Part shown: positions 24,994 to 50,743 of the stretch, in pieces
How positions within the stretch are numbered: the stretch's first letter is position 1
Layout: every line of letters starts with the position of its first letter
Assembly: GCA_021818445.1 (NCBI GenBank)
Contig: JAKAEB010000015.1
Coordinates: 50-64,049 of the forward strand
Source: Planctomycetota bacterium
Lineage (GTDB): Bacteria > Planctomycetota > Phycisphaerae > WQYP01
Reading direction: 5' to 3'
Length of the DNA stretch: 64,000 nt
The notes under the pieces: generated by a model
Databases searched by the model: none
Told to the model about the DNA's origin: nothing
What the model saw: the letters and a program-made list of their open reading frames with translations, nothing else
Program-made: the position numbers and the translations under genes

Positions 24994-25018
24994 CGTATAC
25001 CGCCCCCGAGGACCCGCG

Positions 25019-30280: not shown

Positions 30281-30740
30281 AGTCATCCTTATGCTGGATC
30301 GCAAATTTGCTGGTGAGCAATGTGCGATGGACCAAGTGAGAAATTGTAGCTTGATCCCCTGCAAAAGGGCATTCTAAGAACGTGCGGTTTGAATTTGTAA
30401 GCTGTCGGCAGGCAGCCATGCCGAAGCGCTGCGCAATGGTTTTGGGGCAGATAACCGGTAAAGAGCCTGTCCAAGCAGTGGCAGAGCTGCGATGTGTCGA
30501 AAATGCCCCGGATGGGAGGCACCGGGCCGATGGCGACTCTGAGATGAGTCCGAGAACGCCGCAGACGGGTGAGGACACCCGCGTCCCCCGGGGCTCCCGA
30601 AAAAAATGCCACGCCAGTTATTACCCGGACAGGCTCATGGGGTTGAAAAAAAGTTGGTAATCAGCATGATGCACGTAGTTTTCGGCTTGCCGAGATGACG
30701 TGGATTGAGGGCTAAGAGCCCCATGATTGAGGAGAACTGA

Positions 30741-31661: not shown

Positions 31662-31858
31662 ATTTATCATCCCACCGCGCTGCCATCCGCAGATTGATGG
31701 TGTCTGCGAGTTCAGCTATTTTCGCCTTCAGTCACGGAAGATTGGTTGGTCAAATGCAGGACGCGCCAGCCGGTTTGCGGTAGAATTGTACCTTTGCGGC
31801 AGTGTGGTCAAATGGGGCACCACCGCAAATTGGGATATTACGACCTTCAAGGAAGAAT

Positions 31859-34510
31859 ATGTTCGATCAAGACGCCCGGATAACCGATTTACAAATTGAA
31901 ACTGAACTCTCCGAAAGCTATCTCACCTATGCGATGAGCACCATCATGGATCGTGCCCTGCCGGATGTGCGCGATGGTCTGAAGCCGTCACAGCGGCGCA
32001 TTCTGGTAGCCATGAACGATCTGCGTCTCATGCCCCGCAGCAAGCACATCAAGTGCGCCAAAATCGCGGGCGACACCTCGGGTAATTACCACCCGCACGG
32101 CGAAGCGGTGATATATCCCACCTTGGTGCGTATGGCCCAAAGCTGGAATATGCGAGCGAAATTGGTCGATGGACAGGGCAACTTTGGCTCGATTGACGGC
32201 GATCCACCGGCCGCCATGCGGTATACCGAAGCGCGCATGGCCGACGCAGCCGCCGAGATGATGGAGGATTTGCGCGAGGACACAGTCGATTACATCCCCA
32301 ATTACGATGAACGCCTTGAAGAGCCGACGGTTTTGCCGTCCAAGTTTCCCAATTTGCTCGTCAATGGTTCGCAGGGCATCGCCGTGGGTATGGCGACAAG
32401 CCTGCCCCCGCACAATCTGCGTGAAATCTGTGACGGGCTGGTGAAGGTGATCGATGAGCCGCACTGCACCCTTAAAGATTTAATGAAGATTGTGAAAGGG
32501 CCGGACTTTCCGACCGGCGGCGTGATTTGTGGCCGCGGCGGCATTGTGGACGGCTATGAGCACGGACGGGGCAAAATTGTATTGCGGGGTCGTGTCCATA
32601 CGGAACAGGTTAAAGGCGGGAAGGACCAGATAGTTATCACCGAGATACCGTATCAGGTGCTGAAAAAAACCATTATTGAATCGATCGCCACGCAGGTTAA
32701 GGAAGAGCGGATAAAAGATATCTCCGATGTGCGCGATGAATCGGATCGCGAGCACATGGTGCGGGTGGTGGTGGAACTTAAGCGCGACGCCGACCCCAAC
32801 GTGGTCATCAATCAGCTTTATCAGTACACACCGCTGCAAAGCACTTTTTCGATCATCAACATTGCATTGGTGAACCGCCAGCCTCGCACCATGGGGCTGA
32901 AGGAAATGATGGAGCAATTTATCGACCACCGTAAGGTGGTCATAAGGCGGCGGACGGCCTTCCGTCTCAAAAAGGCACGGCAGCGGGCCCACATACTGGA
33001 AGGTTTAATACTGGCCCTTGCGGATATCCATACGGAAGAGGTATCGCCGCGCAGCTCGGGCGGAAAAATTGAAGTCATGGGCGTTATCGAGATGTTGCGT
33101 AACCGCAAAATCAGCCCCGACGTGCCCACCGCCAAAGCCAATCTGATGCGTAAACAGTTCACCATCGATGAAGCACTCACCTGGCGGAAATTAATTCCAT
33201 CGGCGTTTCTCAAGCGTATCGATCGGGCGGAAAAAGAATCTGGCGGCATGACGCTTTCATCAGCCCAGGCTGACGCCATACTGATCATGCAACTTCAGCG
33301 GCTGGTGGGCCTTGAAATTGAAAAGCTCACCGAGGAGTACAACAAACTCACCGCTGAAATTGAAGGGTATGAACTTATTTTAAGTGATGATAAGCGGGTA
33401 CTGGACATCATCCGGGAAGACACCATTGAACTGCGCGATAAATACGGCGACGAACGCCGTACCCAGATCACCAATGATGCCACGGATATCAACATCGAAG
33501 ATTTGATTGCCGACGAACAGGCCGTCGTCACCATCAGTCACGAGGGATATATCAAGCGCATGCCGCTGGACACCTACCGCAAACAGGGGCGTGGCGGGCG
33601 CGGCATTGTGGGAGCCGACAGTAAAGAGGGCGATTTTATTGAACATTTGTTCATCGGCTCAACCCACGATTATCTGATGTTCTTTACCAATCTGGGCCGC
33701 TGCTACTGGCAGAAGGTTTACGATCTGCCGCAGATGAGCCGCCAGAGCAAGGGCCGGTCGATTGCCAATCTGGTTGAATTTCAACAGGGGGAAAATCTCG
33801 CTGCAGTGCTGCCGGTACGCGACTTCGACGACGAAGGTAAGCACCTGGTTATGGCCACGGCCGGCGGCATTATTAAAAAGACGCTGCTCAAGGCGTATGG
33901 CAACCCGCAGAAGCGCGGGATCATCGCCATCGGCCTCGATAAGGGCGACAGTTTAATCGGTGTGGGCGTCACCAACGGCAACGACCAGATCGTGCTGGCC
34001 ACACGCGAAGGTATGGCCGTGCGGTTTCAGGAGACCGAGGTACGCGACATGGGCAGACAGGCCGGCGGCGTCAAGGGCGTCGAGCTTGAGGAAAAGGACC
34101 GCGTAGTGGACATGGTGATTGTACCGCACGGACTGGACCATGGTGATAACCAGGTAACTTTGCTGACGGCCTGCGAAAATGGCTACGGCAAACGCACAAG
34201 AATTGAGGAATACCGACTCACCCATCGCGGCGGGAAAGGCGTTATTAATATCCGCACCACGGATCGCAATGGCCCGGTGGTGGCGGTCAGGGCGATTACC
34301 GATAACGACGAATTGATGATGATCACCAAACAGGGACAGGTGGTACGCATCGGGGTAACCGGTGTGCTGCGGGAAATGGGACGGGCTACGCAGGGTGTGC
34401 GACTCATCAAGCTGGAAGAGGGCGACATCCTTGTGGGTATGGCCCGTGTGATACCGGAAGACACCGATGAATCGGATTCGGCACCTCTGCTTGATCCGCC
34501 CAAGGAATAG
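31859..34510 (+). CDS. gyrA: DNA gyrase subunit A
   Basis: The N-terminal region [34 protein letters not shown] is the canonical GyrA N-terminus. The active-site Tyr region and C-terminal beta-pinwheel repeats are present. The ATG at 31859 has an upstream GGAAG. Confidence 0.95.
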
Positions 34511-34824
34511 AACATCGGCGATCCGATATCCCGCCGCTCGCCGGTAAGCGGCTGACGTTTCCAGGCGTGGGGCATATCGTTGTTGCCGTGAGTGTTCCTG
34601 ATTAGTGATGTTTCAGAGCCTGTTTGAAAAGTCCAATGCGGGTGGATCGGGGTGGAAAATGGATGGATGCAAGGACGCAGATACGACGCATATTCCGGAA
34701 TATGTTGAGGATCGAGGACACCGCAGACGGCCGTTTGCCGTCCCAAGGCCCTCCCGGCGAAGTTTCCAAACAGGCTCTTAATTTATTTATGCCCGGCGAA
34801 GCCGTCGAATGAAAGGAAATATAC

Positions 34825-36153
34825 GTGGCCGACGTTCAACCGATGTATGCAATTCGGTATCCCGTTTTCGAGCAGACAGAATTGGTTTCTCCCCCGTACG
34901 ACGTTCTGGAACTCAAGCATAAGCAGGCCATGCTTGCCAGAAACAATCGCAACATCGTGGCCATCGATTTGCCTCATGTACCGCCGAAAGTGGCCGGCCC
35001 ATTGGAAGCTTATACGCATGCTGCAGATCAATTACAGGCATGGCTTGCCTCCGGGGCACTGGTGCGTGATGACATTCCGGCACTGTATCCCTACCAGCAA
35101 ACCTACACGCACGAAGGACGCGAATACCAACGCCGCGGACTTTTCTGCCGTGTCCGATTGGAAGAATTTGGCCCCACCGGCAATATCCATCCGCATGAGC
35201 AGACATTCAGCGGCCCCAAAGAGGACCGATTGCTGCTGACGCGCGCTACGCGGTGCAATCTCTCGCCGGTGTTTGGGCTTTATGATGACGCCCATAATGC
35301 CGTTACCAATGCCCTTTTTGCCAAATTGGATGACCCGATTGCCGAAGCCTCGTTGCCATCGATGGATGGCCGAAGCCAGGTGCAGTCAACCCTTTGGCGT
35401 GTGGCTGCGCCCGGTGCTATTAAACATGCGCAAAAGCTGCTGGCCGACAAACACCTGTACATTGCGGATGGGCATCACCGCTATGGAACCTCACTGAACT
35501 ATCGGCGTGAACTCGCCACCAGTGGTCCCCTGCCGCACGACCATCCCGCCAACTTTGTCATGTTTGTACTTGTGGCGATGCAGGACCCCGGCCTGATAGT
35601 CATGCCAACGCACCGTACCATTTCCAATCTGAAAGGATTCTCGCTTGACGCTTTTATGGCGGCGGCGGGATCGCGGTTGAAACTGGTGACTGCTGAAAAA
35701 CATTCCGGCGACGAACTGCCCGCACTTGAAAAACGCCTTCCATCTTTTGGCCCTCACGCCATGGCCGTTTATGACCCTGCAGTTGATAAGGCGATTGTGG
35801 TCAAGCCTGGGGCGGATGACCCGCTGGCGGAATTTATGGCGGCACCGTCGATTGCAGATCATTCCAAGGCGTGGCGGGCACTGGATGTGGCCATCCTGCA
35901 GGAACTTGTCTTTGAACGGATCGTCAAACCCGGGTTTGCAACCGGCGGCGATTTGGCATGGGCGTTTCCCCATGAGGCCAAAGACGTTTTGCAGTTGTGT
36001 CGCCATGCACATCACCAGGCGGGGTTTGTTTTACAGCCGACACCTCTGCAGGCCGTACGCGACTTGTGCAATCACAATGAGCTTATGCCGCAGAAAAGCA
36101 CCTTTTTTTATCCCAAATTGGCAACGGGCATGCTCATTAATCCGCTTTACTGA
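34825..36153 (+). CDS. DUF1015-family protein
   Basis: The N-terminus MADVQPMYAIRYPVFEQTELVSPPYDVLE matches the conserved DUF1015 start (IKPF.alRy....a..v.sPPYDVi). It has a GTG start, with AAGGA 9 nt upstream. Confidence 0.65.
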   Translation: MADVQPMYAIRYPVFEQTELVSPPYDVLELKHKQAMLARNNRNIVAIDLPHVPPKVAGPLEAYTHAADQLQAWLASGALVRDDIPALYPYQQTYTHEGREYQRRGLFCRVRLEEFGPTGNIHPHEQTFSGPKEDRLLLTRATRCNLSPVFGLYDDAHNAVTNALFAKLDDPIAEASLPSMDGRSQVQSTLWRVAAPGAIKHAQKLLADKHLYIADGHHRYGTSLNYRRELATSGPLPHDHPANFVMFVLVAMQDPGLIVMPTHRTISNLKGFSLDAFMAAAGSRLKLVTAEKHSGDELPALEKRLPSFGPHAMAVYDPAVDKAIVVKPGADDPLAEFMAAPSIADHSKAWRALDVAILQELVFERIVKPGFATGGDLAWAFPHEAKDVLQLCRHAHHQAGFVLQPTPLQAVRDLCNHNELMPQKSTFFYPKLATGMLINPLY

Positions 36154-36249
36154 CGGCGGACGGGTTGGACGCACCAGAAATGCGTATTTCAGCGGCGGCC
36201 TGACAACATTTAACCGATACCCGCGTTAGTCCTTAGCGAGTATACGTGG

Positions 36250-38739
36250 ATGATGCAAAACGAAACACTGGCCGATATGTCGCTGAACTTTTTCGGACAG
36301 CATGGCTTTGCCTGGTGGGCCGTGGTTATCGGTACCATCGGCATCGCCCTGCTGATTTACGCCTGGCGGCAATGGCAGCGGGGCAACGCCGCCAAAGCAA
36401 ATGCCGGCCATCCGCCCGCACGATCTACGCCTCCACAACCTTCGACTGTTTATCTGCCCGCCGTGGCCGGCCTCATCGCAATAGTTTACGCCCTGGCCGC
36501 GTGGGTGCTGCCAGTTACGCAGGCACGGTTGCCGGCCCTGGTGCTTACCGCAGGGCTGATGATTCTGGCGGTATGGATTTTTTACCGGCGGATGTATAAC
36601 TTTTTAGGTCGCCGTCGCATGTTTTCCCTGCTGACACTGCGCAGCGCCGGCCTGCTTTTTTTATTACTGATGATGTTTGAACCCGCGATTGCCTGGGTGA
36701 CGGTTCCACATCGGCTGGCCAAAATTGGCGTGGTGATTGATGCTTCCGGCTCCATGAGCGTAAGCGACCAGCCCAACGCCCCGAGCCGCTACCTGCAAAG
36801 CGTAATGGCGGTGCAACAATTATCGCAAATCATCCATCGGCACTTTCAAATTCAATATTTTGCCTACGATGGTAAACATAACGCCCCGCTTACCAACGAA
36901 AAGCAATACAGTGCCATCGCCCCCGATGGCGAGCAAACCGATCTGCCGGCGGCGCTTAAACTCGCCACGGACAACGGTGACAGGGAGGTGGTGCTTTTTT
37001 CCGATGGGATACAAAATGGCCCCACGCCACTGCGGACACTTTCGCGATTGGGCGCAAGAATATTTACCGTGCGTGTGGGCTCTACATCAACTCACGCCAA
37101 GGGTGTGCCAGAAATTGATATTGTCCGCGTCGACGGCCCCCAGTCGGCACCGGTCAATACCCGCGTGACGCTGACGATACATGTCCATTCCACCGCGCTG
37201 GATGACCGGACGGTTCAGGTGCAGCTTTTGCGGCATCGCACATTATTAAAATCCCGGCAGTTGGTCCTGCAGTCCGGGGCGGCTGGTCAGGTGGTTAAAT
37301 TGCATCTTACGCCCCATCACGTCGGACGGCTGTTATTGACGGTGCACATTCCCCGGGTTCCGCAGGAGCGGTCCACCGCCGGCAACACACAGCAATTTCC
37401 GATATTGATCACCAATCCGCGCATCAGCGTACTGTACATTGAAGCCCAGATCAGACCGGAGGTTGGCCCACTGGAGCAGGACTTAGCGACCGACCCGAAC
37501 GTAAATCTCGTGAGCCTGATTCAAACCCGGCCCGGGTATTTCATGGTGCGGGGAGCGCGCGGCAAACTGACCGCACTGCCCCAGACACTGGCGCAATGGA
37601 AACAATTCAAGGTGATTATGCTTGGCGATGTCGCGGCGAAGTTTTTTTCACCTGCCCAGCGGGAACAAATTCGGGATGCGGTGAAAGCCGGGGCGGGTTT
37701 TTTAATGATTGGCGGCATGCAGAATTTTGCGTCCGGCGGATGGGGCAATACGTCCATGACCAGTCTATTTCCGATCCAACTCAGCACGGTGCACCCGAGC
37801 CAACTCTCGCAACCCTTTGTGCCGGAACTTACCCCATTTGGCCGCCAAAGCCCCATTTTTTCGGGCATTGCGCAATGGTTTATCCCGCCCGGTGGTGGAC
37901 ACCCACTGCGGGCCTTGCCCGATCTCGACGGCTGCGTGGCGTTTGCCGGTTTGGCACCGGCGGGGCAGAGCCTGCTGGTCGACCCGCAGGAAAAGGTACG
38001 CGGCTCGCCAGCTATCGTGCTCGCCGTCGGGCACTACGGCAAAGGGCGTTCCGCCGCATTTGCCGCCGATACCACCTACCGATGGCAATTGGAATTGCGA
38101 ACTCTGGGCAACCGGTCACCGTATCATCGATTCTGGGGTCAGTTGATTCGCTGGCTTGCGGGGCAGAGCAAAATTAAAACCGCCTCGGGGCCGTCTGTCA
38201 CTGCGCTTATTCGCCGCCAGCGTTACCGGCCGGGGCAGGTGGTGCGCCTCCGGGCGCAGGTAACAGATATGAGCGGTCAGTCCACACGCTTCGCCCACAC
38301 CAAAGTGGTTGAAGCGCTGCCCGATGGTAAAAGCCGCACGCTATCAATGAATCCGCGGCGGCATAACATCGGCATGTACCAGCGCAATATCCGCCCCACG
38401 CTGCCGGGAAAGTACCTGCTGACTTTTTCGGCCACCAAGGGTGGCAAATCGCTGGGTGTTGATAAAACCGACATTTTTATCATCCCACCGCAGACCGAAA
38501 TGACCAAACTGGCCGCGGAGCCGGCCGTCCTGCAGAGAATCGCCCGGCTTACCGGTGGCACGTACAGTAAGCTCAATTCACTCGGTGCCTTGGGGCGGCG
38601 GCTGAATGCATCGTTGCCGAAGCAAAATCAGATTCGGCGGGTATCTATGCCGCTTTATAATAATTCGTTGTGTTTTATTTTATTTATAGCGGCCATTACG
38701 ACGGAATGGGTTTTGCGCCGCAAATGGCAATTGCAATAA
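36250..38739 (+). CDS. N-terminal double-transmembrane (TIGR02226-like) vWA-domain membrane protein, BatA-like
   Basis: Two N-terminal TM helices are followed by a vWA MIDAS-like segment (VVIDASGSMSVSD). A long extracytoplasmic region follows with a ThuA/GATase1-like segment and a C-terminal TM helix. This architecture is common in Planctomycetes. Confidence 0.6.
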   Translation: MMQNETLADMSLNFFGQHGFAWWAVVIGTIGIALLIYAWRQWQRGNAAKANAGHPPARSTPPQPSTVYLPAVAGLIAIVYALAAWVLPVTQARLPALVLTAGLMILAVWIFYRRMYNFLGRRRMFSLLTLRSAGLLFLLLMMFEPAIAWVTVPHRLAKIGVVIDASGSMSVSDQPNAPSRYLQSVMAVQQLSQIIHRHFQIQYFAYDGKHNAPLTNEKQYSAIAPDGEQTDLPAALKLATDNGDREVVLFSDGIQNGPTPLRTLSRLGARIFTVRVGSTSTHAKGVPEIDIVRVDGPQSAPVNTRVTLTIHVHSTALDDRTVQVQLLRHRTLLKSRQLVLQSGAAGQVVKLHLTPHHVGRLLLTVHIPRVPQERSTAGNTQQFPILITNPRISVLYIEAQIRPEVGPLEQDLATDPNVNLVSLIQTRPGYFMVRGARGKLTALPQTLAQWKQFKVIMLGDVAAKFFSPAQREQIRDAVKAGAGFLMIGGMQNFASGGWGNTSMTSLFPIQLSTVHPSQLSQPFVPELTPFGRQSPIFSGIAQWFIPPGGGHPLRALPDLDGCVAFAGLAPAGQSLLVDPQEKVRGSPAIVLAVGHYGKGRSAAFAADTTYRWQLELRTLGNRSPYHRFWGQLIRWLAGQSKIKTASGPSVTALIRRQRYRPGQVVRLRAQVTDMSGQSTRFAHTKVVEALPDGKSRTLSMNPRRHNIGMYQRNIRPTLPGKYLLTFSATKGGKSLGVDKTDIFIIPPQTEMTKLAAEPAVLQRIARLTGGTYSKLNSLGALGRRLNASLPKQNQIRRVSMPLYNNSLCFILFIAAITTEWVLRRKWQLQ

Positions 38740-38994
38740 CCGGTTACGGCCGAATCGCGTTTGATTCCGCGACGCAGCCTCTGAGCCCTTCTTTTTCGGC
38801 GCGCCACAGGAACAACTTTCATCATGCCAGCGGCATGAAACGTTAGGTCACACGGAGAAGTTGTATTATCGCGCGCAGAGCCACGGAGAGAATTGAAAGC
38901 TACGAAATAACGCCGCGCCCAGTCTTTACGTTCTTGGCGCTCTCGGCGGTGCAAATAGGTACCTTGATTCACCGCGAAGCGGCTGTGTTAGTTG

Positions 38995-39300
38995 TCAAGC
39001 GTTTTTTACGATTTTGAGTTGGTCCCATGGAATATCCTCGCGAATCATAACATTAAGGATGGACAACAATTTTCGCATACAGGCGACAATGATGACTTTG
39101 GATGTCTTTCCAGCTTCACGCAAGCGATTGGCGAAAGCCTTGATAACGGGGTTTGATCGGATCGCTGTAACGGTGGCCATGCATCATCACGCGCGCACCA
39201 TGCACGCGGCTAAATGGGATGGCGGATGCGACAATGTTGTCACAGGGACCGCAATTTGGCATTGCAATTAGCGCCCATCGCCCGGCGATGGCGCTAAACA
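38995..39300 (-). mobile_element. IS110-family transposase 3' remnant (frameshifted, N-terminal ~3/4 missing)
   Basis: The 61-aa ORF 38995-39180 reads TVTAIRSNPVIKAFANRLREAGKTSKVIIVACMRKLLSILNVMIREDIPWD. This matches the conserved C-terminus of IS110/IS116/IS902 transposases (Transposase_20 domain: NPVlKafY.RLra.GKp.KVAlvAcmRKLL.ilnamlr...pw). Upstream homology continues in a different frame (RVHGARVMM). Confidence 0.55.
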
Positions 39301-39376
39301 TGGTGCGTGCGGTTACCAAATCGGCGGCGGATGCGTGGGCGCACGCGGGCGGTGGCGCTAAACATGGTGCATGCGG
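39289..39376. repeat. two 24-nt direct repeats (23/24 identical) tggcgctaaacatggtgc(g/a)tgcgg separated by 40 nt, plus adjacent GC-rich imperfect palindrome
   Basis: Copy 1 is at 39289-39312 and copy 2 at 39353-39376. They lie at the upstream edge of the IS110 remnant and ~160 nt upstream of the tmRNA gene. Confidence 0.7.
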
Positions 39377-39531
39377 CGCTGCCGATAAGTTGGGACGTCG
39401 AAAAACAAACGCCGCAATGCGCTGGTTTTTGGGCGTTTTTACCTCTGCCAGGAAAATGGCCACACCCCCAGGGGATGCCGTTTTAGGGCATTTCGCGTTT
39501 CTGCGGGCGGCGGCTATAATGGAAGCGTCCC

Positions 39532-39908
39532 GGGGGCGAAAGGTATCGACCGGGCAGTAGTGTGGATTATGGCACGCCGACCTGCCAAGCAAGTCGTTAA
39601 ACTGAGTGGCAAAAAATCAAATGCTAAGAACGTTAAGTTCCCAAGCGCCGGCAGCTTCGGCTACCGGATGGCTGCTTAAGATAAGCAGCACGGTTCGCAG
39701 CGGACTTCCGCGACCACTGATGAACCGACGACCAGCGGAATGCTCGATCAGCAGCGTTAATCGGCTGATTGCTAAGACACAGGATTGACTGGGATCGGCC
39801 GTAGTTAGGCTGCGAGCGACGGGCGGTCCGACATTAACATGCAGCCTACGCGTGTAGATGTGATCTTCAACCTGTTTCGGGACGAGGGTTCGAATCCCTC
39901 CGCCTCCA
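39532..39908 (+). ncRNA. ssrA: transfer-messenger RNA (tmRNA, ssrA)
   Basis: The 5' end GGGGGCGAAAGGTATCGACCGGGCAG matches the tmRNA consensus GGGGxxGAxxxGGxxTCGACxGGG. The 3' end has the T-arm GAGGGTTCGAATCCCTC followed by CGCCTCC and A. It forms a 7-bp acceptor stem with the 5' end that includes G3.U70. The candidate tag reading frame GCC...TAA (39647-39679) encodes AGSFGYRMAA. A TATAAT box lies at 39515-39520. Confidence 0.8.
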
Positions 39909-40140
39909 ATTTGTTGGCCGTGCCGGATGTGGCCAACCCCTTCGGCCAGGCCGCATGCGTTAAGTGTGCGGACTGTGGCGACGATTGCCATCACTTGCCA
40001 ATTTCCAACGAGGAGTCTGCCCAGGTAATAGAGGTGCTGCGGTGAGCCGGAGGCGTCCCGGATGCACTCTCCTTGTAGCGGGCCCGATAAAGTTGTATCC
40101 TTGCCAAACGTCATATATATCGAAGAGAGGTTTCGAAATC

Positions 40141-41226
40141 GTGGCCTCGACGACAAGCGCTGCCTTTGATATCCGTCCGCAAGTTGACACCATGCTTGCG
40201 CGTGCCCTTGAGCGCCGGGCTTCTGACATTCACATTGACCCGGTACCCGACAGATTTGACATTCGTTTCCGCATTGACGGTTTGCTGCAATCCATCGAGC
40301 ATGTGCCATTGGCGACTGGCCAGGCCATCGTCAACCGGCTGATGGTCATGGCCCGCTTGCTGACTTATCGGCGCGATATTCCGCAGGAGGGGAGAATACG
40401 TTTCGACCACCCAGCGCCCATGGATTTGCGATTGTCGGTCATCCCGACGCTTCATGGCCTCCGGGCCGTGATAAGAATGCCGGCGGACTTCATTGCTCCG
40501 CAGCGCCTGGAAGAATTGAATCTTTCCAGTGCGAGCCATGAGTTTCTTCAGCAGTTTTGCCGAGCGGATTCCGGCATGCTGGTGATCATCGGCCCGGCGG
40601 GTTCGGGCAAAACGACCACAATTTATGCAATGCTCCAGCACCTATCTGAAGCGCGGCCCGGTGAAAGCATTGTGTCATTGGAAGACCCGATTGAACGCGC
40701 CATCCGCGGTGTGACGCAAATTGAAGTCAGCCCCTTCGGGGAACTGAATTACGAAACAGCACTCAAAAGCATCCTGCGGCAAGACCCGCAAATTTTGGCC
40801 ATTGGCGAGATTCGCGATGGGGCTACCGCATCGCTGGCAATTCAGGCGGCACTTACGGGCCACCGCCTGCTGTGCACGCTGCATGCCGGCTCGCCCACGG
40901 GGGCTCTCCGCCGCCTGCTGGAGATGGGCGCTGAGCGTTACCAGTTAACCAGCAGTATTTTTGGCTTTTTGAATCAGCGGCTGGTGCGACGAAAAACCGC
41001 CTCCGGCTATTGTGGACGCGTGCCCGTGAGCAACTTTCTGCGTTTTGACGCTGAGCATGCACGGGAAATATTGGATGCCCCCAAAAATGTGCCGGGCAGC
41101 GGAACGACTGCGGCCCGGGAAGCGGACATCGGCGGCGATTTGTGGGCCGCAGGCGAGGCATTGCTGGCGGCGGGTACCACCGACGAGGCGGAATTGCGGC
41201 GTGTGCTGGGGCAACAGGAGACATAG
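40141..41226 (+). CDS. gspE: type II secretion / type IV pilus assembly ATPase (GspE/PilB family)
   Basis: It has Walker A (LVIIGPAGSGKTTT), Asp box, Walker B and His box (ILAIGEIRDGATASLAIQAALTGHRLLCTLHAGS). Start assigned to the GTG at 40141, preceded by AGAGAGG. The track ORF starts at 39964. Confidence 0.8.
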   Translation: MASTTSAAFDIRPQVDTMLARALERRASDIHIDPVPDRFDIRFRIDGLLQSIEHVPLATGQAIVNRLMVMARLLTYRRDIPQEGRIRFDHPAPMDLRLSVIPTLHGLRAVIRMPADFIAPQRLEELNLSSASHEFLQQFCRADSGMLVIIGPAGSGKTTTIYAMLQHLSEARPGESIVSLEDPIERAIRGVTQIEVSPFGELNYETALKSILRQDPQILAIGEIRDGATASLAIQAALTGHRLLCTLHAGSPTGALRRLLEMGAERYQLTSSIFGFLNQRLVRRKTASGYCGRVPVSNFLRFDAEHAREILDAPKNVPGSGTTAAREADIGGDLWAAGEALLAAGTTDEAELRRVLGQQET

Positions 41227-41230
41227 ACCC

Positions 41231-42478
41231 ATGGCGATTGGCAGTTTTGGATATCGGGCGCAGGTGGAGGGTGGTGGTGAGATTGTTGGGTCGATCAATG
41301 CGGCGGATGAGGCTGCGGCCCGGCAGACATTGGAATCATTAAAACTGCAGGTACGCGAATTGTGGCCCACTGGCAAGGCCATCAAGACGCGCCCGCTTAA
41401 TGCCGATGATTTTCGCGCTTTTAATCAGCAATTGGCGTTGCTGGTCAAGGCGGGCTTGCCTTTGGAGGCGGGCCTTGACCTGCTGGCCTCGGAACGCGGG
41501 GGTCGACGGCGAAATAAGGTCATAGACGCCATTAATGCCGATTTGAAAAGCGGCACGAGTTTGGCGGACGCCGTGGCCAAACGGGGACGGGATTTTCCAC
41601 CGGACTACGCCATGCTGCTGGAGGCGGGCGTCGAGACCAACAACCTGTCGCAGGTTTTAATAAATCTCGGAAGCCATCTTGAAATGCGGCAAAAATTACG
41701 CGATAGCCTTTTCAAGGCTTTTGGCTATCCGATGTTTGTGCTTGCGGCCATGATTGCCGTAGGCGCTTTTATGGGTTGGTACGTTTTTCCGCTGTTTGAT
41801 CGATTTATTATCCAGTCGAGGCATAACTCGTCGATCATGTGGCTTGGCCCGTCAAAGCAACTGCCATGGCCGACGGCCCTACTGTTTTTCCTTGGCGAGA
41901 ATACCACACCCATATTGATTATTATTTGCGCGGTGATCGTGATGGGAATTGCAATTTGGCTTTTGTTGCGGCGGCAGCCTGTCGGATTGACTTTGCGGGA
42001 TTGGGCAGCCGAGCATATGCCCTTATTTGGCCCCGCCGTGCGCGCGAGTTTAATTGCCCGATGGTGTGACGGGCTGCGCATGGGTGTTATCAGTGGGATG
42101 GATTTGCCACAGTCCATTGAACTGGCCGGCGCGGTGACGGGGTCACCCATGATGACGGCCTGCGGATCGAGCATGAATTTTGCCATATCACGCGGACTGC
42201 CAATTGATAAGGCGGTGGCGGAAACCGCCCTGCCGCCGACGATTGGCGTTGCGATACAGACCGGCATAACGTGCAATAATTTACCGGAAACACTCAATGT
42301 GCTCAGCGAGGGTTACAGCAAGGAAGCGCAAATTCGCATTGCCGCGCTGCCGGCGATTATTACGCCTGTGCTGCTGGTGATGTTGAGCCTGATTGTGATA
42401 TTGGTGTTCTCGGGTTTGATGGCCCCGTTCATCAGATTGCTCAACTCCCTCGTGTTACTCAACTCCTTCCTGAATTGA
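41231..42478 (+). CDS. gspF: type II secretion system inner-membrane platform protein (GspF/PilC family)
   Basis: Two T2SSF repeats, each with a cytoplasmic helical domain plus TM segments (FNQQLALLVKAGLPLEAGLDLL). The ATG lies 5 nt after the gspE stop. Confidence 0.8.
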   Translation: MAIGSFGYRAQVEGGGEIVGSINAADEAAARQTLESLKLQVRELWPTGKAIKTRPLNADDFRAFNQQLALLVKAGLPLEAGLDLLASERGGRRRNKVIDAINADLKSGTSLADAVAKRGRDFPPDYAMLLEAGVETNNLSQVLINLGSHLEMRQKLRDSLFKAFGYPMFVLAAMIAVGAFMGWYVFPLFDRFIIQSRHNSSIMWLGPSKQLPWPTALLFFLGENTTPILIIICAVIVMGIAIWLLLRRQPVGLTLRDWAAEHMPLFGPAVRASLIARWCDGLRMGVISGMDLPQSIELAGAVTGSPMMTACGSSMNFAISRGLPIDKAVAETALPPTIGVAIQTGITCNNLPETLNVLSEGYSKEAQIRIAALPAIITPVLLVMLSLIVILVFSGLMAPFIRLLNSLVLLNSFLN

Positions 42479-42517
42479 GGGGCACCGTCGCGATGTGCGC
42501 AATGGAGACGTGCAGAA

Positions 42518-43744
42518 ATGATAAAAGATTGGCGATTGAAGCTGGCACGCTGGATGATCCGTCACCGCAGTCGCCCTGTCCGTTTCGTGTCCGCGCTGCC
42601 CATGTGGCTGGTATTCTGGTGCATACCGATCGCGGGGATTATTTTCCTCGCCTTTGGCTATGCCATACTGCTGGTGCTGCCGGTGCTGGTGGTCGGTCGA
42701 TACTTTGTGGCCCGACGGACGGCGGATGTCGTGCTGGCAAAAATCGGCGACATCCTGCGTCTGAACCACCCGTTGGCCCAAACCCTTCAACGAATGGGTG
42801 AATTTGAACCGGGATTGATCGGCGTCCGCCTGATTACCATTGGAGAATTATTGTCCGAGGGCATGCCGGTCGCGGAATCTCTCCGTCTGGCCCTGCCTGA
42901 GATTGACGCTGGCCGCTTAGGTACCATCGCAACAGCCGAAAGCCAGGACATGCTGATTGAGGAATTCAGCCATCACGAATCGTGGCGCCAAACGTGGGAT
43001 ATTTTTACGGAGTTGGATACCGCGCAACTGGTTTATTTTGCTCTGCTGGCGTTGGCTGTGCCTATGACCGCGTACCTGATCTCAAGATTCGTCCTGCCGC
43101 GTTTTATGAGATGGCATATCGTAGCAGCGTTCTACCCGCATTCAATTCGGACTAATGGCCTCGTGGCGACGACACTTTTCATTACCGTGATTTTTATCCC
43201 CGTCATGATTGGTGGGGCATTACTGCGGCGGTTGGTGGTGCCGTTCTTCCGGCGGGCGGAATGGTTTTTATTCTGCGGCGATGCCCTGACGTGGCGGCTG
43301 CCAGTTTGGGGTCGACTGGTGCAGGCCCGGTCATGGGCGGCGGCCACCAGCGTTCTGGCCGCCGGCATAGAGCGCGGTGTTCCACTGCCGCAGAATTGCC
43401 GATTGGCCGCCGAAGCGGCACGCAACCGCGTGGCCCGTCGCCGATTGCGGTTTTGGGGGCAACTTGCTGAGGGTGGAGGTGAGGCGGCCGCGGCGGCCCG
43501 GCAAGCCCATCTTCCCAGGCGTATCCGCACCGTCATGACAATGCCGGGGGACATGCTTGGTGCAGGATTGAACACTCTCACCGAGGCGTATCGGCGCGAT
43601 TACCAGCGGACGATGAACTGGGTGCGGGCCGCCGGAATTCCGGTGACCGTTTTGTTTTTTGGTGCCGCCATTCTTGGCGTGATCTTAATGGTTTACTGGC
43701 CATATGCGGAATTGCTGGGGGCCCTTGCCAGGAGCGCACAATGA
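42518..43744 (+). CDS. second GspF-like polytopic membrane protein (divergent T2SSF paralog)
   Basis: It has membrane helices with T2SSF-like cytoplasmic segments (LSEGMPVAESLRLALPEIDAG ...). It is operonic between gspF and the pseudopilin genes. The similarity is weak. Confidence 0.4.
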   Translation: MIKDWRLKLARWMIRHRSRPVRFVSALPMWLVFWCIPIAGIIFLAFGYAILLVLPVLVVGRYFVARRTADVVLAKIGDILRLNHPLAQTLQRMGEFEPGLIGVRLITIGELLSEGMPVAESLRLALPEIDAGRLGTIATAESQDMLIEEFSHHESWRQTWDIFTELDTAQLVYFALLALAVPMTAYLISRFVLPRFMRWHIVAAFYPHSIRTNGLVATTLFITVIFIPVMIGGALLRRLVVPFFRRAEWFLFCGDALTWRLPVWGRLVQARSWAAATSVLAAGIERGVPLPQNCRLAAEAARNRVARRRLRFWGQLAEGGGEAAAAARQAHLPRRIRTVMTMPGDMLGAGLNTLTEAYRRDYQRTMNWVRAAGIPVTVLFFGAAILGVILMVYWPYAELLGALARSAQ

Positions 43745-44109
43745 AGCATTACAAGGCTTTTATCCTCATGGATTTATTACTCGGCATAGCCCTGCTGCTG
43801 ATCATCGCCGGCAGCTTTACCCGCATTTCAATCATGTATCGGCAGCGTTGCAGGCAACTTGCCGCCATTCGCCGGCACGCGCGAATGGAGGCATACATGG
43901 CGTACACACTGATGCGCCAGCATCCACATGCCGCGGCGATGCCTTCGGGCTGGCGACTTGCGGCCGTGCCGACCAGTCCAGCAAAGCAGGCGGCGCTTCC
44001 CGCTGGCTTCCACTGGATGGCCGTTCGTCCAGCGCATGACGGCAAGTTGCCGATGCTTTATTTCCTGCGAGAAGAAAAACATGCGACCAGCGCGGAGCCT
44101 GAACAATGA
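43741..44109 (+). CDS. pseudopilin-like protein with degenerate prepilin leader
   Basis: The N-terminus MKHYKAFILMDLLLGIALLLIIAGSF resembles a class III signal (K-A-F-x-L-x-[E]) but has Asp at the +5 position. The ATGA overlaps the upstream gene. Confidence 0.45.
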   Translation: MKHYKAFILMDLLLGIALLLIIAGSFTRISIMYRQRCRQLAAIRRHARMEAYMAYTLMRQHPHAAAMPSGWRLAAVPTSPAKQAALPAGFHWMAVRPAHDGKLPMLYFLREEKHATSAEPEQ

Positions 44110-44615
44110 ATACCGCAGGCCGACATATTCAAATGCAAATGCGAATCAGCCGCCGGGGCTTTTCCATTGTTGAGTGTGTGATCGCATTGCCCATCATGGC
44201 GATATTCCTTTTCATGGCCGCGCAGCTCTTTCACGGGTGCTGGGTGATGGTGCGTTACAGCGATGACCAAAGTACGCAGGTGGCGCAGCGGCAGATGATT
44301 ATCCGGCGCCTGCGAGCCGACGTGCACAGCAGTGACAACATTCGGCTTGTCAACCGTGGGTTGTTGGCCTGTCACACGCCGACGGGCATTATTGATTGGC
44401 AACTCACCCCGCGTGGAGTGGTGAAGCGGAAATGGCAGAGGGCACGACGCGGCCGGGGGCCCAGGGCCGCATGGCGGTCCGATGCGGTTATGCCGTCGGC
44501 ACATTTCAGTTTATCAACCGGGCATGTCTTGCATTTGGTGTATTTTGTCCACGGCTATCGAAGAGTTTTCACGACCATGCCAATCGCCTTTCTCCTGCCG
44601 AGGGGTCACCGATGA
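44106..44615 (+). CDS. prepilin-type N-terminal cleavage/methylation domain pseudopilin
   Basis: It carries RRGFSIVECVIALPIMAIFLF, a canonical G-F-S-x-x-E prepilin peptidase site followed by a hydrophobic helix. Confidence 0.6.
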   Translation: MNTAGRHIQMQMRISRRGFSIVECVIALPIMAIFLFMAAQLFHGCWVMVRYSDDQSTQVAQRQMIIRRLRADVHSSDNIRLVNRGLLACHTPTGIIDWQLTPRGVVKRKWQRARRGRGPRAAWRSDAVMPSAHFSLSTGHVLHLVYFVHGYRRVFTTMPIAFLLPRGHR

Positions 44616-45037
44616 ATCAAAATGTCCACAATCGCTTGCGGACCCAACCATCAACAGGGTGGAAACCGGGGGTGGCGATCATCACGGTGATATTTATGCT
44701 GGCTATTGTCGGCCTGAGCCTGGCGGTTATGGCCCGGGCATTCATGGGGCAGGCAGAATTGACGGCCCGCACCGTCGCGCGCCGTCAATTGTCGCTTCTT
44801 ATTGATGGCGCGGTGCAGATTGTCAAAGGCGAAGTCATGCGGAACGCCCCTCCGCGCAAGTTGCAGCTTATCGCTTTACCATTGGCCCTGGTTCGCCAGC
44901 GGGGGCGGTTGACCATAAGGATTGAAGCGACCGGGCCGGGGGTGGTGGCCTATCAAATTCACGGCCGCTACGATGGACTGCACCGCAAGCTTCTGCTGGC
45001 ATATGACCGTGAGACAGGTCGATGGGCCATCCGCTGA
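44612..45037 (+). CDS. GspK/minor-pseudopilin-like protein
   Basis: The N-terminal anchor KPGVAIITVIFMLAIVGLSLAVMA resembles GspK. It has an ATGA start-stop overlap with the previous gene, and GAGGGG upstream. Confidence 0.4.
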   Translation: MNQNVHNRLRTQPSTGWKPGVAIITVIFMLAIVGLSLAVMARAFMGQAELTARTVARRQLSLLIDGAVQIVKGEVMRNAPPRKLQLIALPLALVRQRGRLTIRIEATGPGVVAYQIHGRYDGLHRKLLLAYDRETGRWAIR

Positions 45038-45270
45038 TCAACTCTCCGACCGCACGCCTTGGGGAGGGTTTTCGCGGTCGGCTTGCTGGTAGTTGACTCT
45101 TTGGTGAATGCCTAATGGGCCACGATAGACGGTGATGGGTTTTGCGGGCACGATCACCGGGCAAGCCCGGCGGCTCGCTGGTTATGTCATCGGATTATTT
45201 TCGCGCTGTTCGGCCGTTGGGATACACCGGGCAAGCCTGCGCCGGTGCAAACAGGGCAGAAATCTCGCGA

Positions 45271-45957
45271 TTACCGCGCTATCTTGTAATGCGTAAGCTG
45301 TGCCACCATGTGATTGCTGCTGCGTTCAACGAGCCCGACTCCTCTGGCATAATATTCCGTCATTTTAATACGCATGTGCCGCGTCTGCACCTGCCCCGCG
45401 ACGGCAACCACGCTGGTGATATCCTCGGTCACCTTTACCCGGCAGCACTTAAATTTTCCTGCGGGCACGGTGACGTGCCTGAATCCGGTAATTGTCAGGT
45501 GGGATGCGACTGTAGTGTGAACCAGTACAACAAACGGCCCGCTTGAGGCTGTGGATTTGTCGGTCATGGCATATTTCCACTGGTAGCCAGGCTTCCAGAG
45601 GGATGTTTTGGGGATTACCACCCCGGATGTACGGACGATTTTGATTTTAATTTTTCGGCCCTGCATTTTGCGAATCTGCACGTTGCCGAGGTCTGCCGAT
45701 ACCCAACCCTGCGGCGAGCGTTTGAAGTGCATCACCGCGGCGACGCTGCCGGTCTGTTTTTCGGTGAAGTGTGTGGGAGTTGAGGCTGTGATGGTTTGCG
45801 TAAATGCCGGCCCGCCATGGGAATATTGGTAACTCCAGGACGACCCCTTGGTGGTTGGAAAAATGGTACCGGCACCCTGCGCAACGCCGCCCACGCAACC
45901 AAAAAGGAGGAAGCTCAGCAGCACCACACGCCGCGCCATGTTGAGTGAATTATGCAT
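45271..45957 (-). CDS. secreted hypothetical protein (signal peptide, beta-rich)
   Basis: The N-terminal signal peptide is MARRVVLLSFLLFGCVGGVAQGAG. No recognisable catalytic motif is present. Confidence 0.4.
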   Translation of the reverse strand: MHNSLNMARRVVLLSFLLFGCVGGVAQGAGTIFPTTKGSSWSYQYSHGGPAFTQTITASTPTHFTEKQTGSVAAVMHFKRSPQGWVSADLGNVQIRKMQGRKIKIKIVRTSGVVIPKTSLWKPGYQWKYAMTDKSTASSGPFVVLVHTTVASHLTITGFRHVTVPAGKFKCCRVKVTEDITSVVAVAGQVQTRHMRIKMTEYYARGVGLVERSSNHMVAQLTHYKIAR

Positions 45958-46109
45958 TAGTATCTCCTGCCACGAAAGAAGATTATTTCAGATTGCGTGG
46001 CAGAGTGCAAATGCTGCACGGGCATTTCCAATCTTCGAAAGGCATGTGGAAATGGTGTCGGATGGGCTTGGGGATCTTCACACCGACCCGGCGGTTTTAC
46101 ACTGGTTAT

Positions 46110-48869
46110 CTACGCCTGATGAGAGGTGGGAAGCTTGCTGCATAATTCACGAAAAGCTTTAAGTGCTTCCCAGGCCTGCATGGGAGACATGCGTTCCAGA
46201 TCGAGCGACTGAATCTGCGAAACGATCTGCGTGCCCAGCGGGTCGAACATATTGACCTGCCCGCTGGCGCGCGTGGCCGCCGCCCTGGGACGCGGCCGCC
46301 CCACCTGAACCGTCAATTGATCCATCAGGCGGCGAGCGCGCTCCACCACGTTGCGTGGCACACCCGCCAGACGGGCTACGTGCACGCCATACGATTTATC
46401 CGCCCGGCCGGGCACAATGCGATGCATGAAGAGTATCTGATCCTGCCATTCTCGCACCAGCACGCTCGCATTGCGTATTTTTTCCGATGTGTCGGCAAGT
46501 TCGGTCAATTCGTGATAGTGGGTGGCGAAAAGGGTGCGGCAACCCACGTGATCCGACAGATGCTCGGCAATGGCCCACGCCAAGGCTAAGCCGTCGAGGG
46601 TGCTGGTTCCCCGCCCCACTTCGTCCAAAATTACCAGCGCATCGGGCGAGGCGTGCAGCAGGATGTCCGCCGTCTCCACCATTTCCACCATGAAGGTGGA
46701 CTGGCCGGCGGCCAGATCGTCCGATGCCCCAATGCGTGTGAAGATGCGGTCCACCAGGCCGACGGTGGCCTCCTTGGCCGGGACGTAGAGGCCCGCCTGG
46801 GCCATGAGAGTAATAAGGGCGGCCTGACGGATGTAGGTTGATTTACCGGCCATATTGGGGCCGGTGATCAGGTGCAGCACGGCACCACCGGGTTCGAAGA
46901 GCAGATCATTGGCGACAAATTTTTCCCGCAGAAGTTTTTCCAGCACGGGATGGCGGCCATCAATGATGCGCATCTCCCGCTGCGTGGTGACAACCGGGCG
47001 GCAGTACCCGCGCAGGCGTGCCACGTGAGCACTGCACAAAAGCACATCAATCTCTGCCACCTGCCGTGCGAGGCTTTGAAGGGCTGGCACATATTCCGCC
47101 AGCGCCCGCAGCAGGGCCTGATACACATCGGCCTCGAGCGCGATGGATCGGTCGCGCGATGTGAGCGCTTTGGATTCATAATCCTTGAGTTCGGGAGTGA
47201 TGTATCGCTCGGCATTTTTAACGGTCTGGCGGCGGATAAATTCCGCGGGCATGCGGCCGGCACTGGCGTGGGATACCTCGATGTAAAATCCGAAAACTTT
47301 ATTAAATCCAACCTTCAGATTGGCGATGCCGGTAGTCTTGATGAGATTATTCTGATAATCCGTCAGCCACTGACGGGAGTCGCCGGCAAAGGCTCGAAGG
47401 TTATCCAATTCCGTGTGCACGCCCGCTTTGATGTATCCCCCTTCCCGGGTGTGGGCGGGCGGGTCATCCACGATATGACTGCGGATTTTTTCAGCGACCG
47501 GCATGACGGCATCCAGACCGGAGCGCAGCGATGCGAGACAGGATGGGTGGGGTGATTGCTGAGCCAGTACACCGGCGATACCACCAACGGCCTCAATGGA
47601 GCGGGCCAGGGCGTTAAGTTCGCGCGGGCCGACACGTCCGAGGGCAATTCGGGCACAGGATCGTTCGATATCGCCCACATCGGTGATGAGAAGCCGACAT
47701 TGTTCCAATAATTTGGGGGCATCAATAAATTCTGCCGTGCGGTCGAGGCGCTGGTTGATGATGGCCGGATCGCGCAGGGGAAAGAGCACCCAATTTTTCA
47801 GCAGCCGGGCACCCATGGGTGTGCGGGTTTCATCCAAGGCACCGACCAGCGAGCCTTCGGTGCTGTTAAGCCGATAGGATCGCACGAGTTCAAGCGATTT
47901 AATCGATGCGCCGTCGATAATCAGATGCCGCCGGCGGTCAAAGGGTTGGGGCGGAGGCAGATGGCCGATGGCGGCCAACTGAGTTTCGGCGAGGTAGCTG
48001 ATAATCAGGCCGGCGGCACACAGAGCCGGATCGGCGGGGTTGTCATATCCAAAGGCGGTGAGTTGGGCCACGCCGTAATGATTACGTAATGTTTCTGCGG
48101 CCCGGTGCGACTGAGCCTGCCACGCCGGACGCACAGTGAGTGTCATGCGGCGGGCGTCGGCGAGTTGGGCAACCGTGCTGGCGGGCCGATGGTCCGGCCC
48201 CTCGGCGGTGAGCAATTCACGCGGATTGATCCGGGCCAGTTCGCCGAGGCAGACCGTGACGGTGTCAACCAGGGTTAAAAATTTACCGGTGGATAAATCG
48301 CACCACGCCAGCGCGGCGGTTGGTTCATCCACGTCAAGCAGGCCGGTATCTGCATGGAGATCCGCCTCACCATGCACCCCGCTTTTTTCCGGCAGGATGA
48401 TGGCGGCGAGAAAATTTTCCTCTCCCGCCGGCAGCAGGTTATCTTCCGTAAGGGTGCCGGGGGTTATTAATCGCGTCACGCGGCGGTCAATAACGCCTTT
48501 GGCGTCTTTGGGGTCCTGCACCTGCTCGCACATGGCCACCCGATAGCCGGCGGTGATCATACGCTGCAAATACCCATCGACAGCATGGTGGGGCACACCC
48601 GCCATGGGAATGGGATTTTCGCCCTTGCTGCGGCTTGTCAGGGCGATGCCAAGTACGCGTGCCACGGTGCGGGCATCTTCGTAGAAGGTTTCGTAAAAAT
48701 CTCCCATACGGAAAAAGAGAATCGCTTCGGGATATTGGGCTTTGTACATCTGATATTGCCGCATGGCCGGGGTTAAATCAGCGGCGCTGATCGAGGCAAT
48801 GGGGGTAACATTTTCCGGCGAGACTTCAGGCATGGGCGAGAGTATATCGCCCGGGGGGAAAAGCACCAA
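46110..48869 (-). CDS. mutS: DNA mismatch repair protein MutS
   Basis: 919 aa with the N-terminal mismatch-binding domain (FYETFYEDA), the ABC ATPase Walker A (GPNMAGKSTYIRQ) and the DEVGRGTSTLDG signature. Confidence 0.95.
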   Translation of the reverse strand: MVLFPPGDILSPMPEVSPENVTPIASISAADLTPAMRQYQMYKAQYPEAILFFRMGDFYETFYEDARTVARVLGIALTSRSKGENPIPMAGVPHHAVDGYLQRMITAGYRVAMCEQVQDPKDAKGVIDRRVTRLITPGTLTEDNLLPAGEENFLAAIILPEKSGVHGEADLHADTGLLDVDEPTAALAWCDLSTGKFLTLVDTVTVCLGELARINPRELLTAEGPDHRPASTVAQLADARRMTLTVRPAWQAQSHRAAETLRNHYGVAQLTAFGYDNPADPALCAAGLIISYLAETQLAAIGHLPPPQPFDRRRHLIIDGASIKSLELVRSYRLNSTEGSLVGALDETRTPMGARLLKNWVLFPLRDPAIINQRLDRTAEFIDAPKLLEQCRLLITDVGDIERSCARIALGRVGPRELNALARSIEAVGGIAGVLAQQSPHPSCLASLRSGLDAVMPVAEKIRSHIVDDPPAHTREGGYIKAGVHTELDNLRAFAGDSRQWLTDYQNNLIKTTGIANLKVGFNKVFGFYIEVSHASAGRMPAEFIRRQTVKNAERYITPELKDYESKALTSRDRSIALEADVYQALLRALAEYVPALQSLARQVAEIDVLLCSAHVARLRGYCRPVVTTQREMRIIDGRHPVLEKLLREKFVANDLLFEPGGAVLHLITGPNMAGKSTYIRQAALITLMAQAGLYVPAKEATVGLVDRIFTRIGASDDLAAGQSTFMVEMVETADILLHASPDALVILDEVGRGTSTLDGLALAWAIAEHLSDHVGCRTLFATHYHELTELADTSEKIRNASVLVREWQDQILFMHRIVPGRADKSYGVHVARLAGVPRNVVERARRLMDQLTVQVGRPRPRAAATRASGQVNMFDPLGTQIVSQIQSLDLERMSPMQAWEALKAFRELCSKLPTSHQA

Positions 48870-49035
48870 AAAATGGTTTGGGGGCGGAAACGTGTGCGGT
48901 GCATTTTATCTTTAGCGGGCGGTTTTTCGTCGGAGGCGCTTGCTATTTGAATGGCGATTGTCTAACTTCGTCAGGGTGTAATTTTTGACCAAGCCTGCGG
49001 ACAGGGGCCAAATGCACCGCCGGAGAAGTTGACAG

Positions 49036-50367: not shown

Positions 50368-50557
50368 CCGGCGGATGCGATAGGCGTACCGCAGGGCGTG
50401 GCCAATTTTCCTTGGGAGGCGAAGTTGCCGCAAAACTAACGATTGGCGAGGTTTATCGGGGCATTCCCTAAATGCCCAGACGCGTTACTATAGCCGCGGT
50501 CCCAAGGGTACCGGGAAAAATGGCTCTGCGCGGAGCGCGCCGTCTTTAACTGGGTAA

Positions 50558-50586
50558 TTGACAGGCAGGCGGCGGTGTATAAACTA
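50558..50586 (+). promoter_or_regulatory. candidate sigma70-type promoter for rplM-rpsI
   Basis: A TTGACA box at 50558-50563 and TATAAA/TAAACT at 50578-50586 give 14-16 nt spacing. The element lies ~160 nt upstream of rplM. Confidence 0.3.
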
Positions 50587-50743
50587 TAGGGTTTCTGCCG
50601 CGCGAGGGGAATCGCGCCCGGCAGACCAATGAGCGTATCGACTCGGTGTAAGCCGCGTCTCTGTTCTTTTGGCAGAAATTTCCCCGCGTGTTCGACGTTT
50701 GTTCGAGCTGTTACTAATGGCTGATCGGGAAGTGATGTGACCT

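Follow-up and report, generated by a model that had tools for sequence, protein, structure and literature searches.

The stretch analysed here (the window) comprises 64,000 nucleotides (nt) of contig JAKAEB010000015.1 from a Planctomycetota bacterium (lineage Planctomycetota; Phycisphaerae; WQYP01), and carries at positions 39532 to 39908 of its forward strand a gene for a one-piece transfer-messenger RNA (tmRNA, ssrA). The gene and its parts are arranged as follows.

39532..39908 (+): one-piece tmRNA (ssrA) gene, 377 nt up to the discriminator A, located by ARAGORN and Rfam RF00023
39532-39554 (+): 5′ end of the gene, GGGGGCGAAAGGTATCGACCGGG, read from the sequence
39532..39538 (+): 5′ strand of the acceptor stem, GGGGGCG, pairing with CGCCTCC at 39901-39907
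39550..39577 (+): 5′ strand of helix 2, pairing with approximately 39850-39880 and joining the tRNA-like domain to the pseudoknot ring (RNAalifold)
39578..39611 (+): pseudoknot 1, with stem 1 CGAC 39578-39581/GUCG 39593-39596 and stem 2 UGCCA 39583-39587/UGGCA 39607-39611
39612..39622 (+): A-rich single-stranded linker AAAAAUCAAAU, with the frame-setting A at -4 (39619)
39623..39679 (+): tag reading frame, with resume codon GCT 39623-39625, 18 codons for the predicted tag AKNVKFPSAGSFGYRMAA and stop codon TAA 39677-39679 (ARAGORN, Rfam alignment)
39671..39689 (+): helix 5 hairpin GCUGCUU/AAGCAGC, pairing the last tag codons, with the A-A of the stop codon in its loop (RNAalifold)
39691..39740 (+): pseudoknot 2, with stem 1 39691-39697/39721-39727 and stem 2 UUCCGC 39706-39711/GCGGAA 39735-39740
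39745..39789 (+): pseudoknot 3, with stem 1 39745-39752/39764-39771 and stem 2 39756-39762/39783-39789 (stem search)
39792..39847 (+): pseudoknot 4, with stem 1 39792-39806/39815-39829 and stem 2 39807-39814/39840-39847 (stem search)
39884..39900 (+): T-arm GAGGG-UUCGAAU-CCCUC, with stem strands 39884-39888/39896-39900
39908 (+): discriminator A, directly 3′ of CGCCTCC

ARAGORN calls a tmRNA with ends exactly at 39532 and 39908, and the Rfam model RF00023 matches the same interval over its full length (model positions 1-374 of 374) with 123.1 bits (E 1.3e-47) against a gathering score of 47 bits, which places the gene within the family. A first-pass annotation, made from the letters of the sequence, had proposed an unannotated tmRNA gene with its 3′ boundary at 39908 and had named a covariance-model or ARAGORN-type search as the check; gene and boundary are both borne out. 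No competing Rfam family appears at E<=1 except sub-threshold noise, and the model for permuted tmRNA (RF04321) reaches only 16.5 bits against its gathering score of 47, on the 3′ T-arm region only. A permissive Rfam search of 38700-40200 returned no other credible RNA, including in the 350 nt between an insertion sequence (IS) remnant and the promoter, both described below. tmRNA is a universal housekeeping RNA that is found by any ARAGORN or Rfam pass, and the gene at 39532..39908 is an ordinary example of it, with every defining feature that is testable from sequence present. We put the probability that it is an intact, functional one-piece tmRNA of a Phycisphaerae-type planctomycete at roughly 96%.

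The two ends of the gene form a tRNA-Ala-like domain with a 7-bp acceptor stem, discriminator A and T-arm. The seven acceptor pairs (G1-C, G2-C, G3·U, G4-C, G5-C, C6-G and G7-C) include a wobble of G3 (39534) with U (39905), which is the alanine-identity pair G3·U70; the 5′ end, the T-arm and the acceptor stem with this wobble all lie where the first-pass annotation had put them. The acceptor pairs are invariant (7/7, G·U included) in 8/8 sequences compared, as is the T-arm, however this invariance arises partly by construction, the retrieval pattern having fixed both ends, and it adds little.

The sequences compared with the window gene come from a pattern scan of GTDB species genomes in which only the two tRNA-like halves were fixed and the 320-350 nt between them were left free. 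The scan returned seven loci (L007 to L013), all from metagenome-assembled genomes (MAGs) labelled Planctomycetota, Phycisphaerae, Tepidisphaerales or Phycisphaera, such as DZDI01000027.1 (a 'Phycisphaera mikurensis' MAG) and JBBQNK010000002.1 (Tepidisphaerales). Their tmRNAs are 97.9%, 93.9%, 93.6%, 88.9%, 76.6%, 49.1% and 48.5% identical to that of the window, and in every relative the sequence similarity ends exactly at the tmRNA ends.

A structure of 100 pairs in 15 helices, derived in part from the window sequence, was scored on a MAFFT alignment of the eight sequences, with conclusions on covariation resting on the internal helices, the tRNA-like ends being fixed by the pattern. RNAalifold applied to the eight sequences recovered the acceptor stem, T-arm, helix 2, helix 5 and the main pseudoknot hairpins with 30 compensatory pairs; the second stem of each pseudoknot was found by a separate stem search. 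Standard pairs fill 92.0% of the pair cells and the covariation score is 0.337; shifting the 3′ partners by 1-3 columns lowers these values to 35-45% and 0.04-0.10, respectively. Changes on both sides affect 34 pairs where shuffles give a mean of 18.9, and 0/500 shuffles reach 34.

This support is spread over the internal helices. Pairing reaches 93-100% in helices 2-4 of the scored structure, where 6 pairs have changed on both sides, and 96% in helix 5 (helix 8 of the scored structure), where 2 have. In pseudoknot 3, such two-sided changes number 6 in helix 11 and 3 in helix 12 (stem 2), while in pseudoknot 4 they affect 10/13 pairs of helix 13 (stem 1), which is 99% paired, and 6/8 of helix 14 (stem 2). 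Apparent breaks in pseudoknots 1 and 2 are confined to L009 and L012, where the MAFFT alignment is out of register; searched singly, both sequences form H-type knots. Pseudoknot 1 of these two loci has the same topology with stems CCAGG/CCUGG and GCACAG/CUGUG[UC], both stems having been replaced by compensatory changes, and pseudoknot 2, paired in the six closer sequences, has in L009 and L012 an equivalent H-type knot in its own register. RNAalifold had paired part of pseudoknot 2 with a distant segment (columns 174-180/271-277), an arrangement that was replaced by the local H-type knot. Helix 2 and pseudoknots 1 to 4 are all present and supported across the eight sequences, pseudoknot 2 least, which answers the fold check for four pseudoknots set by the first-pass annotation. 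The gene is documented together with its four-pseudoknot fold, its reading frame and its evolutionary conservation.

Mechanically called open reading frames (ORFs) overlap the tmRNA at 39219..39560 (+), 39606..39788 (+), 39617..40309 (-) and 39839..40045 (+). Contig L001, which is 100% identical to the window over 38000-41500 and contains the same tmRNA, carries two automatic gene calls over it, one of 108 amino acids (12985..13311, equal to window 39234..39560, +) and one of 124 amino acids (13368..13742, equal to 39617..39991, -). That an automatic pipeline called both ORFs on an identical contig is the point in favour of a protein-coding region with an incidental tmRNA match. However, the overlapping ORFs of more than 100 amino acids, which include those enclosing the two calls, have no match when tested against Pfam and NCBIfam, the substitutions among relatives are base-pair compensatory (the 34 pairs above), and the similarity has the limits of the tmRNA in every relative, as would suit an RNA gene but not those ORFs. 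A coding region thus has next to no probability, and the 108- and 124-amino-acid calls are probably spurious protein-database entries.

Within the tmRNA, ARAGORN assigns the coding part to gene positions 92-148 (39623-39679), and the Rfam alignment matches GCU 39623 to the resume codon of the consensus, preceded by the A-rich linker of the consensus. This codon lies 11 nt past the 3′ strand of pseudoknot 1 and is preceded by an A at -4 in 8/8 sequences; mutagenesis of the corresponding A86 in E. coli showed that this A sets the frame "four nucleotides down" (PMC2481249). The frame closes with a stop codon at helix 5, directly after a hydrophobic-Ala-Ala end; a tag frame of this kind requires neither a start codon nor a Shine-Dalgarno sequence. 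From an invariant resume GCT the frame is open in 8/8 tmRNAs, and all eight tags start A-x-N and end [LM]-A-A. The tags of L008, L011 and L013 are identical to that of the window and the tag of L007 differs by one residue, while L010 keeps 18 codons (AENYTFPTAGSFGYRLAA) with synonymous changes GGC>GGT, TAC>TAT and GCT>GCC and a stop codon changed from TAA to TGA. L009 and L012 have entirely different tags of 20 residues, ANNSVVGRIGFDAATVRLAA and ANNSDVAGRVGFNASLVLAA.

The first-pass annotation had read a tag of 10 residues, AGSFGYRMAA, from GCC 39647, eight codons downstream of GCT 39623 in the same frame. Its frame (39647-39679) is indeed open and its stop codon is retained, while its start is not, and the peptide corresponds to the last 10 of 18 residues. 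Resumption at GCC 39647 within a genuine tmRNA has in its favour that this is an in-frame Ala codon, also with A at -4 (CCAAGC followed by GCC), and that the resulting tag would equal that of E. coli in length. However, GCC 39647 lies 35 nt past pseudoknot 1, where the consensus resume position is at approximately 11 nt, both ARAGORN and the Rfam alignment choose GCT 39623, and GCC is not conserved in L009 and L012 whereas GCT is invariant. Codons 1-8, which the short tag omits, have 0/24 changes in L007, L008, L011 and L013, are open in 8/8 sequences and supply the conserved A-x-N start; in the same four relatives the whole tag has 0-1 changes in 57 nt, and pseudoknots 2 to 4 have 2-13 per region. 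These codons are as constrained as codons 9-18. Resumption at GCC 39647 is accordingly judged extremely unlikely and the resume codon is assigned to GCT 39623, so that the tag would be the 18-residue AKNVKFPSAGSFGYRMAA. The likeness to the E. coli tag noted earlier holds when counted from the C-terminus (Y-R-M-A-A against Y-A-L-A-A), not for a Tyr at residue 6, as the Tyr is residue 14 of 18. A search for the tag strings returned no relevant paper in the searchable literature.

The 18-20-residue tags of this Phycisphaerae/Tepidisphaerales clade share the A-x-N start and, internally, a G-[SF]-F-G or G-F motif, conserved as strongly as the C-terminal degron. It is conceivable, if rather doubtful, that they carry a lineage-specific second recognition element, for an SspB-like adaptor, another protease or a function beyond ClpXP; the conserved motifs could equally reflect constraint at the RNA level or short divergence among the closest relatives.

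The flanks of the gene bear on its expression, beginning with the following upstream element.

39492..39520 (+): putative sigma-70-type promoter, with -35-like TTCGCG 39492-39497, a 17-nt spacer and -10 TATAAT 39515-39520

The TATAAT box had been noticed previously and is present, with 11 nt between it and G1 of the tmRNA instead of the 12 given then. TATAAT and TTCGC[AGT] recur at the same spacing and distance in L008, L011 and L013, and in L012 and L009 the boxes are TAGAAT or TAGAGT, combined with TTTGCC; beyond these elements the upstream flanks of the relatives cannot be aligned (mean column identity 46%). A promoter function for the TATAAT element is a reasonable reading of this comparative support.

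At the 3′ end, CCA is not encoded, ATT following directly after A39908, and an encoded CCA is missing from all eight tmRNA genes. The window also contains a tRNA-Met (CAT) gene at 60865..60937 (+), scoring 63 bits in Rfam and likewise without an encoded CCA (TTGG is next), which suggests that the organism depends on a CCA-adding enzyme; presumably, therefore, an enzyme adds the 3′ CCA of the mature tmRNA. Encoding CCA is not among the features that define a tmRNA gene. Strong intrinsic terminators (a GC-rich hairpin with a T-run) directly follow the tmRNA at L009 575-640 and L012 700-764 (minus strand). The presence of terminators in these two loci and in none of the window's clade suggests that the 3′ end is formed differently within the same class. 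A strict terminator scan of the window region found two terminator-like sites, both upstream of the tmRNA gene.

Several observations weigh against an intact and functional gene. No canonical intrinsic terminator lies 3′ of it; the hairpin found there spans just 8 bp and lacks a T-run, and the 3′ trailer folds no better than its shuffles (z -0.99). No site passes a strict consensus promoter scan, because the -35 hexamer TTCGCG matches at only 3/6 positions. Pseudoknot 2 is the weakest of the four, with little direct covariation on the MAFFT alignment, and the invariance of the tRNA-like ends is in part the product of the retrieval pattern. A tblastn search of the 64 kb for smpB, using an approximate E. 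coli SmpB query, found no SmpB-like ORF (best E 0.3). The gene might in principle be a decaying pseudogene or a second copy, with the functional ssrA elsewhere in the genome, given that the analysis covers 64 kb of that genome only and that the nearby IS remnant marks a locus that has been disturbed. Against decay stand the full-length, untruncated RF00023 match, the intact state of all helices, the conservation of the promoter in relatives, and identities of 97.9% to L013 and 93.9% to L008 with the changes concentrated in the pseudoknots and compensated. A pseudogene or spare copy is highly improbable on this evidence, and an intact, functional tmRNA is the preferred interpretation.

The disturbance near the gene consists of a single element.

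38740..39180 (-): 5′-truncated remnant of an IS110-family element, outside the tmRNA and upstream of its 5′ end

The ORF at 38995..39180 (-) represents only the C-terminal 61 residues of a 322-amino-acid IS110 (DEDD) transposase, matching NCBIfam NF033542 at profile positions 289-341 of 343 (E 1.2e-6) and scoring 27.9 bits, where the cutoff is 140. In L002, a different assembly of this locus, the place is occupied by an intact 322-amino-acid transposase with both domains of a functional IS110 member (DEDD_Tnp_IS110, PF01548, and Transposase_20, PF02371), to residues 262-322 of which the fragment is 96.7% identical. The window copy does not have this pair of domains and is a remnant and no functional member. 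The DNA of window and L002 is 99.1% identical over 38740-39180 and unrelated beyond 39180, and five other assemblies end between 38738 and 39180, as assemblers do at repeats; the difference at the shared 441 nt may reflect a strain polymorphism or an assembly join. Of the four mismatches to L002, three (39163, 39166 and 39171) are grouped within 18 nt of the break. Inside the element region of L002 (12491..14227), a 153-nt stretch with 74% identity recurs on both sides of the transposase gene, at 12526-12668 and 14076-14227 (window 38775-38917), and may represent the element ends or a repeated target sequence.

Genomic islands that integrate at ssrA bring a site-specific integrase to the 3′ end of the gene, which is duplicated (PMC4131195). 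The first-pass annotation had explained the mobile-element debris in this way, with the tmRNA gene as integration site and the debris as the leftover of an island or prophage inserted in ssrA. The debris is real, and its transposase fragment lies only 352 nt from the tmRNA gene, a closeness that recalls ssrA-targeting (Islander-type) islands and prophages. It lies, however, on the 5′ side of the gene and belongs to an IS110-family DEDD transposase and not to a tyrosine integrase. The 23-nt 3′ end of the tmRNA has no second copy in the 64 kb, even with up to 3 mismatches, and a repeat search of 36-46 kb found only short chance-like repeats, none involving the 3′ end of the gene. No integrase adjoins the tmRNA among the window ORFs tested, nor among those tested near the tmRNA in L011 and L013, which are unrelated ordinary genes (NERD nuclease, MscS, DNA methylase, CysS, LpxB and GATase). 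The downstream flank is also conserved, in that the order tmRNA, T2SSE, T2SSF, T2SSF of a GspE/GspF-type operon is kept in L007 at 62-76% amino-acid identity. With no duplicated 3′ end, no integrase and a conserved downstream operon, integration at ssrA does not explain the debris and is very unlikely to have taken place here. Given the absence of an att duplication, a mobile-element fragment near ssrA is no evidence of integration at ssrA.

The operon, at 40141 to approximately 44800 (+), resembles type II secretion and type IV pilus systems and encodes a GspE/PilB-like (T2SSE) ATPase and two membrane proteins with T2SSF domains. It also contains small ORFs, and the N-terminus of one of these (44106..44615), ...RRGFSIVECVIAL, looks prepilin-like by eye. 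Apart from L007, the relatives have genomic neighbours around the tmRNA that differ from those of the window. In L010 the tmRNA is followed after 19 nt by a tRNA-Val (GAC) gene at 1275..1348 (-) in the same orientation, and the two may be co-transcribed. An 829-amino-acid protein upstream of the window tmRNA has an exact match in several ENA metagenome assemblies and in the NCBI MAG GCA_027426495.1. Within the 350 nt that separate the tmRNA promoter from the IS110 break lies a 29-nt direct repeat, GGCG[A/G]TGGCGCTAAACATGGTGC[G/A]TGCGG, at 39284-39312 and 39348-39376 (93% identical, 64 nt apart), without an Rfam match. Almost all 1-kb bins of 1..64000 have a positive GC skew, and the cumulative skew climbs steadily to 3.7, consistent with the positive strand being the leading strand throughout the window; no origin or terminus signal is visible in the skew across the 64 kb.

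For transcription start, processing, charging, tagging and proteolysis, the route proposed here is drawn from membership of the tmRNA family. A precursor would be transcribed from the TATAAT promoter approximately 11 nt upstream, RNase P would trim the 5′ end, and the 3′ end would be trimmed and receive CCA enzymatically, since CCA is not encoded. Charging of the tRNA-like domain by alanyl-tRNA synthetase would depend on G3·U70 and the discriminator A. Together with SmpB, presumably encoded outside the window, the charged tmRNA would occupy the vacant A site when a ribosome has stalled on a non-stop mRNA, and would donate its Ala. The ribosome would next change templates and read the internal frame, whose start at GCU 39623 would be set by the -4 A of the A-rich linker that follows pseudoknot 1. 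The stalled protein would thus gain the tag AKNVKFPSAGSFGYRMAA before termination at UAA 39677, and its C-terminal Y-R-M-A-A, comparable with Y-A-L-A-A of E. coli, may direct the tagged product to ClpXP-type proteolysis.

With E. coli-type one-piece tmRNA the window gene has in common the 7-bp acceptor stem with G3·U70, the discriminator A and T-arm, a long helix 2, four H-type pseudoknots (pseudoknot 1 before the tag, pseudoknots 2 to 4 after it), the A-rich linker with A at -4 ahead of a GCN resume codon, a stop codon at the loop of the helix 5 hairpin and a tag ending Y-x-[LM]-A-A. Unlike E. coli, its predicted tag has 18 residues instead of 10 and ends in MAA instead of LAA, although the close relatives L007 and L010 have LAA; CCA is not encoded and no canonical terminator lies 3′ of the gene. 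The base at -5 is C in the window gene and U in E. coli, whose tmRNA tolerates the change U85C (PMC2481249). Two-piece (permuted) tmRNA of the RF04321 type has the same function and tRNA-like elements, but the window gene is collinear. Among the Planctomycetota MAG tmRNAs all seven have the same tRNA-like ends, which the pattern fixed, and the four-pseudoknot layout recurs in L007, L008, L010, L011 and L013, of which L008, L011 and L013 also have the TATAAT promoter; L009 and L012 differ from the window in their 20-residue tags, their rebuilt stems in pseudoknots 1 and 2 and their strong terminators.

The window gene adds a further tmRNA to a known family, with the 18-residue MAA tag, the unencoded CCA and the missing terminator as its lineage-specific details, all of which lie, to our knowledge, inside the known range of tmRNA variation. 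Its main value is for annotation, in that the tag is corrected and two spurious ORF calls on a public copy of the contig are exposed. The corrected 18-residue tag would be useful for the proteomic detection of trans-translation products in Phycisphaerae.

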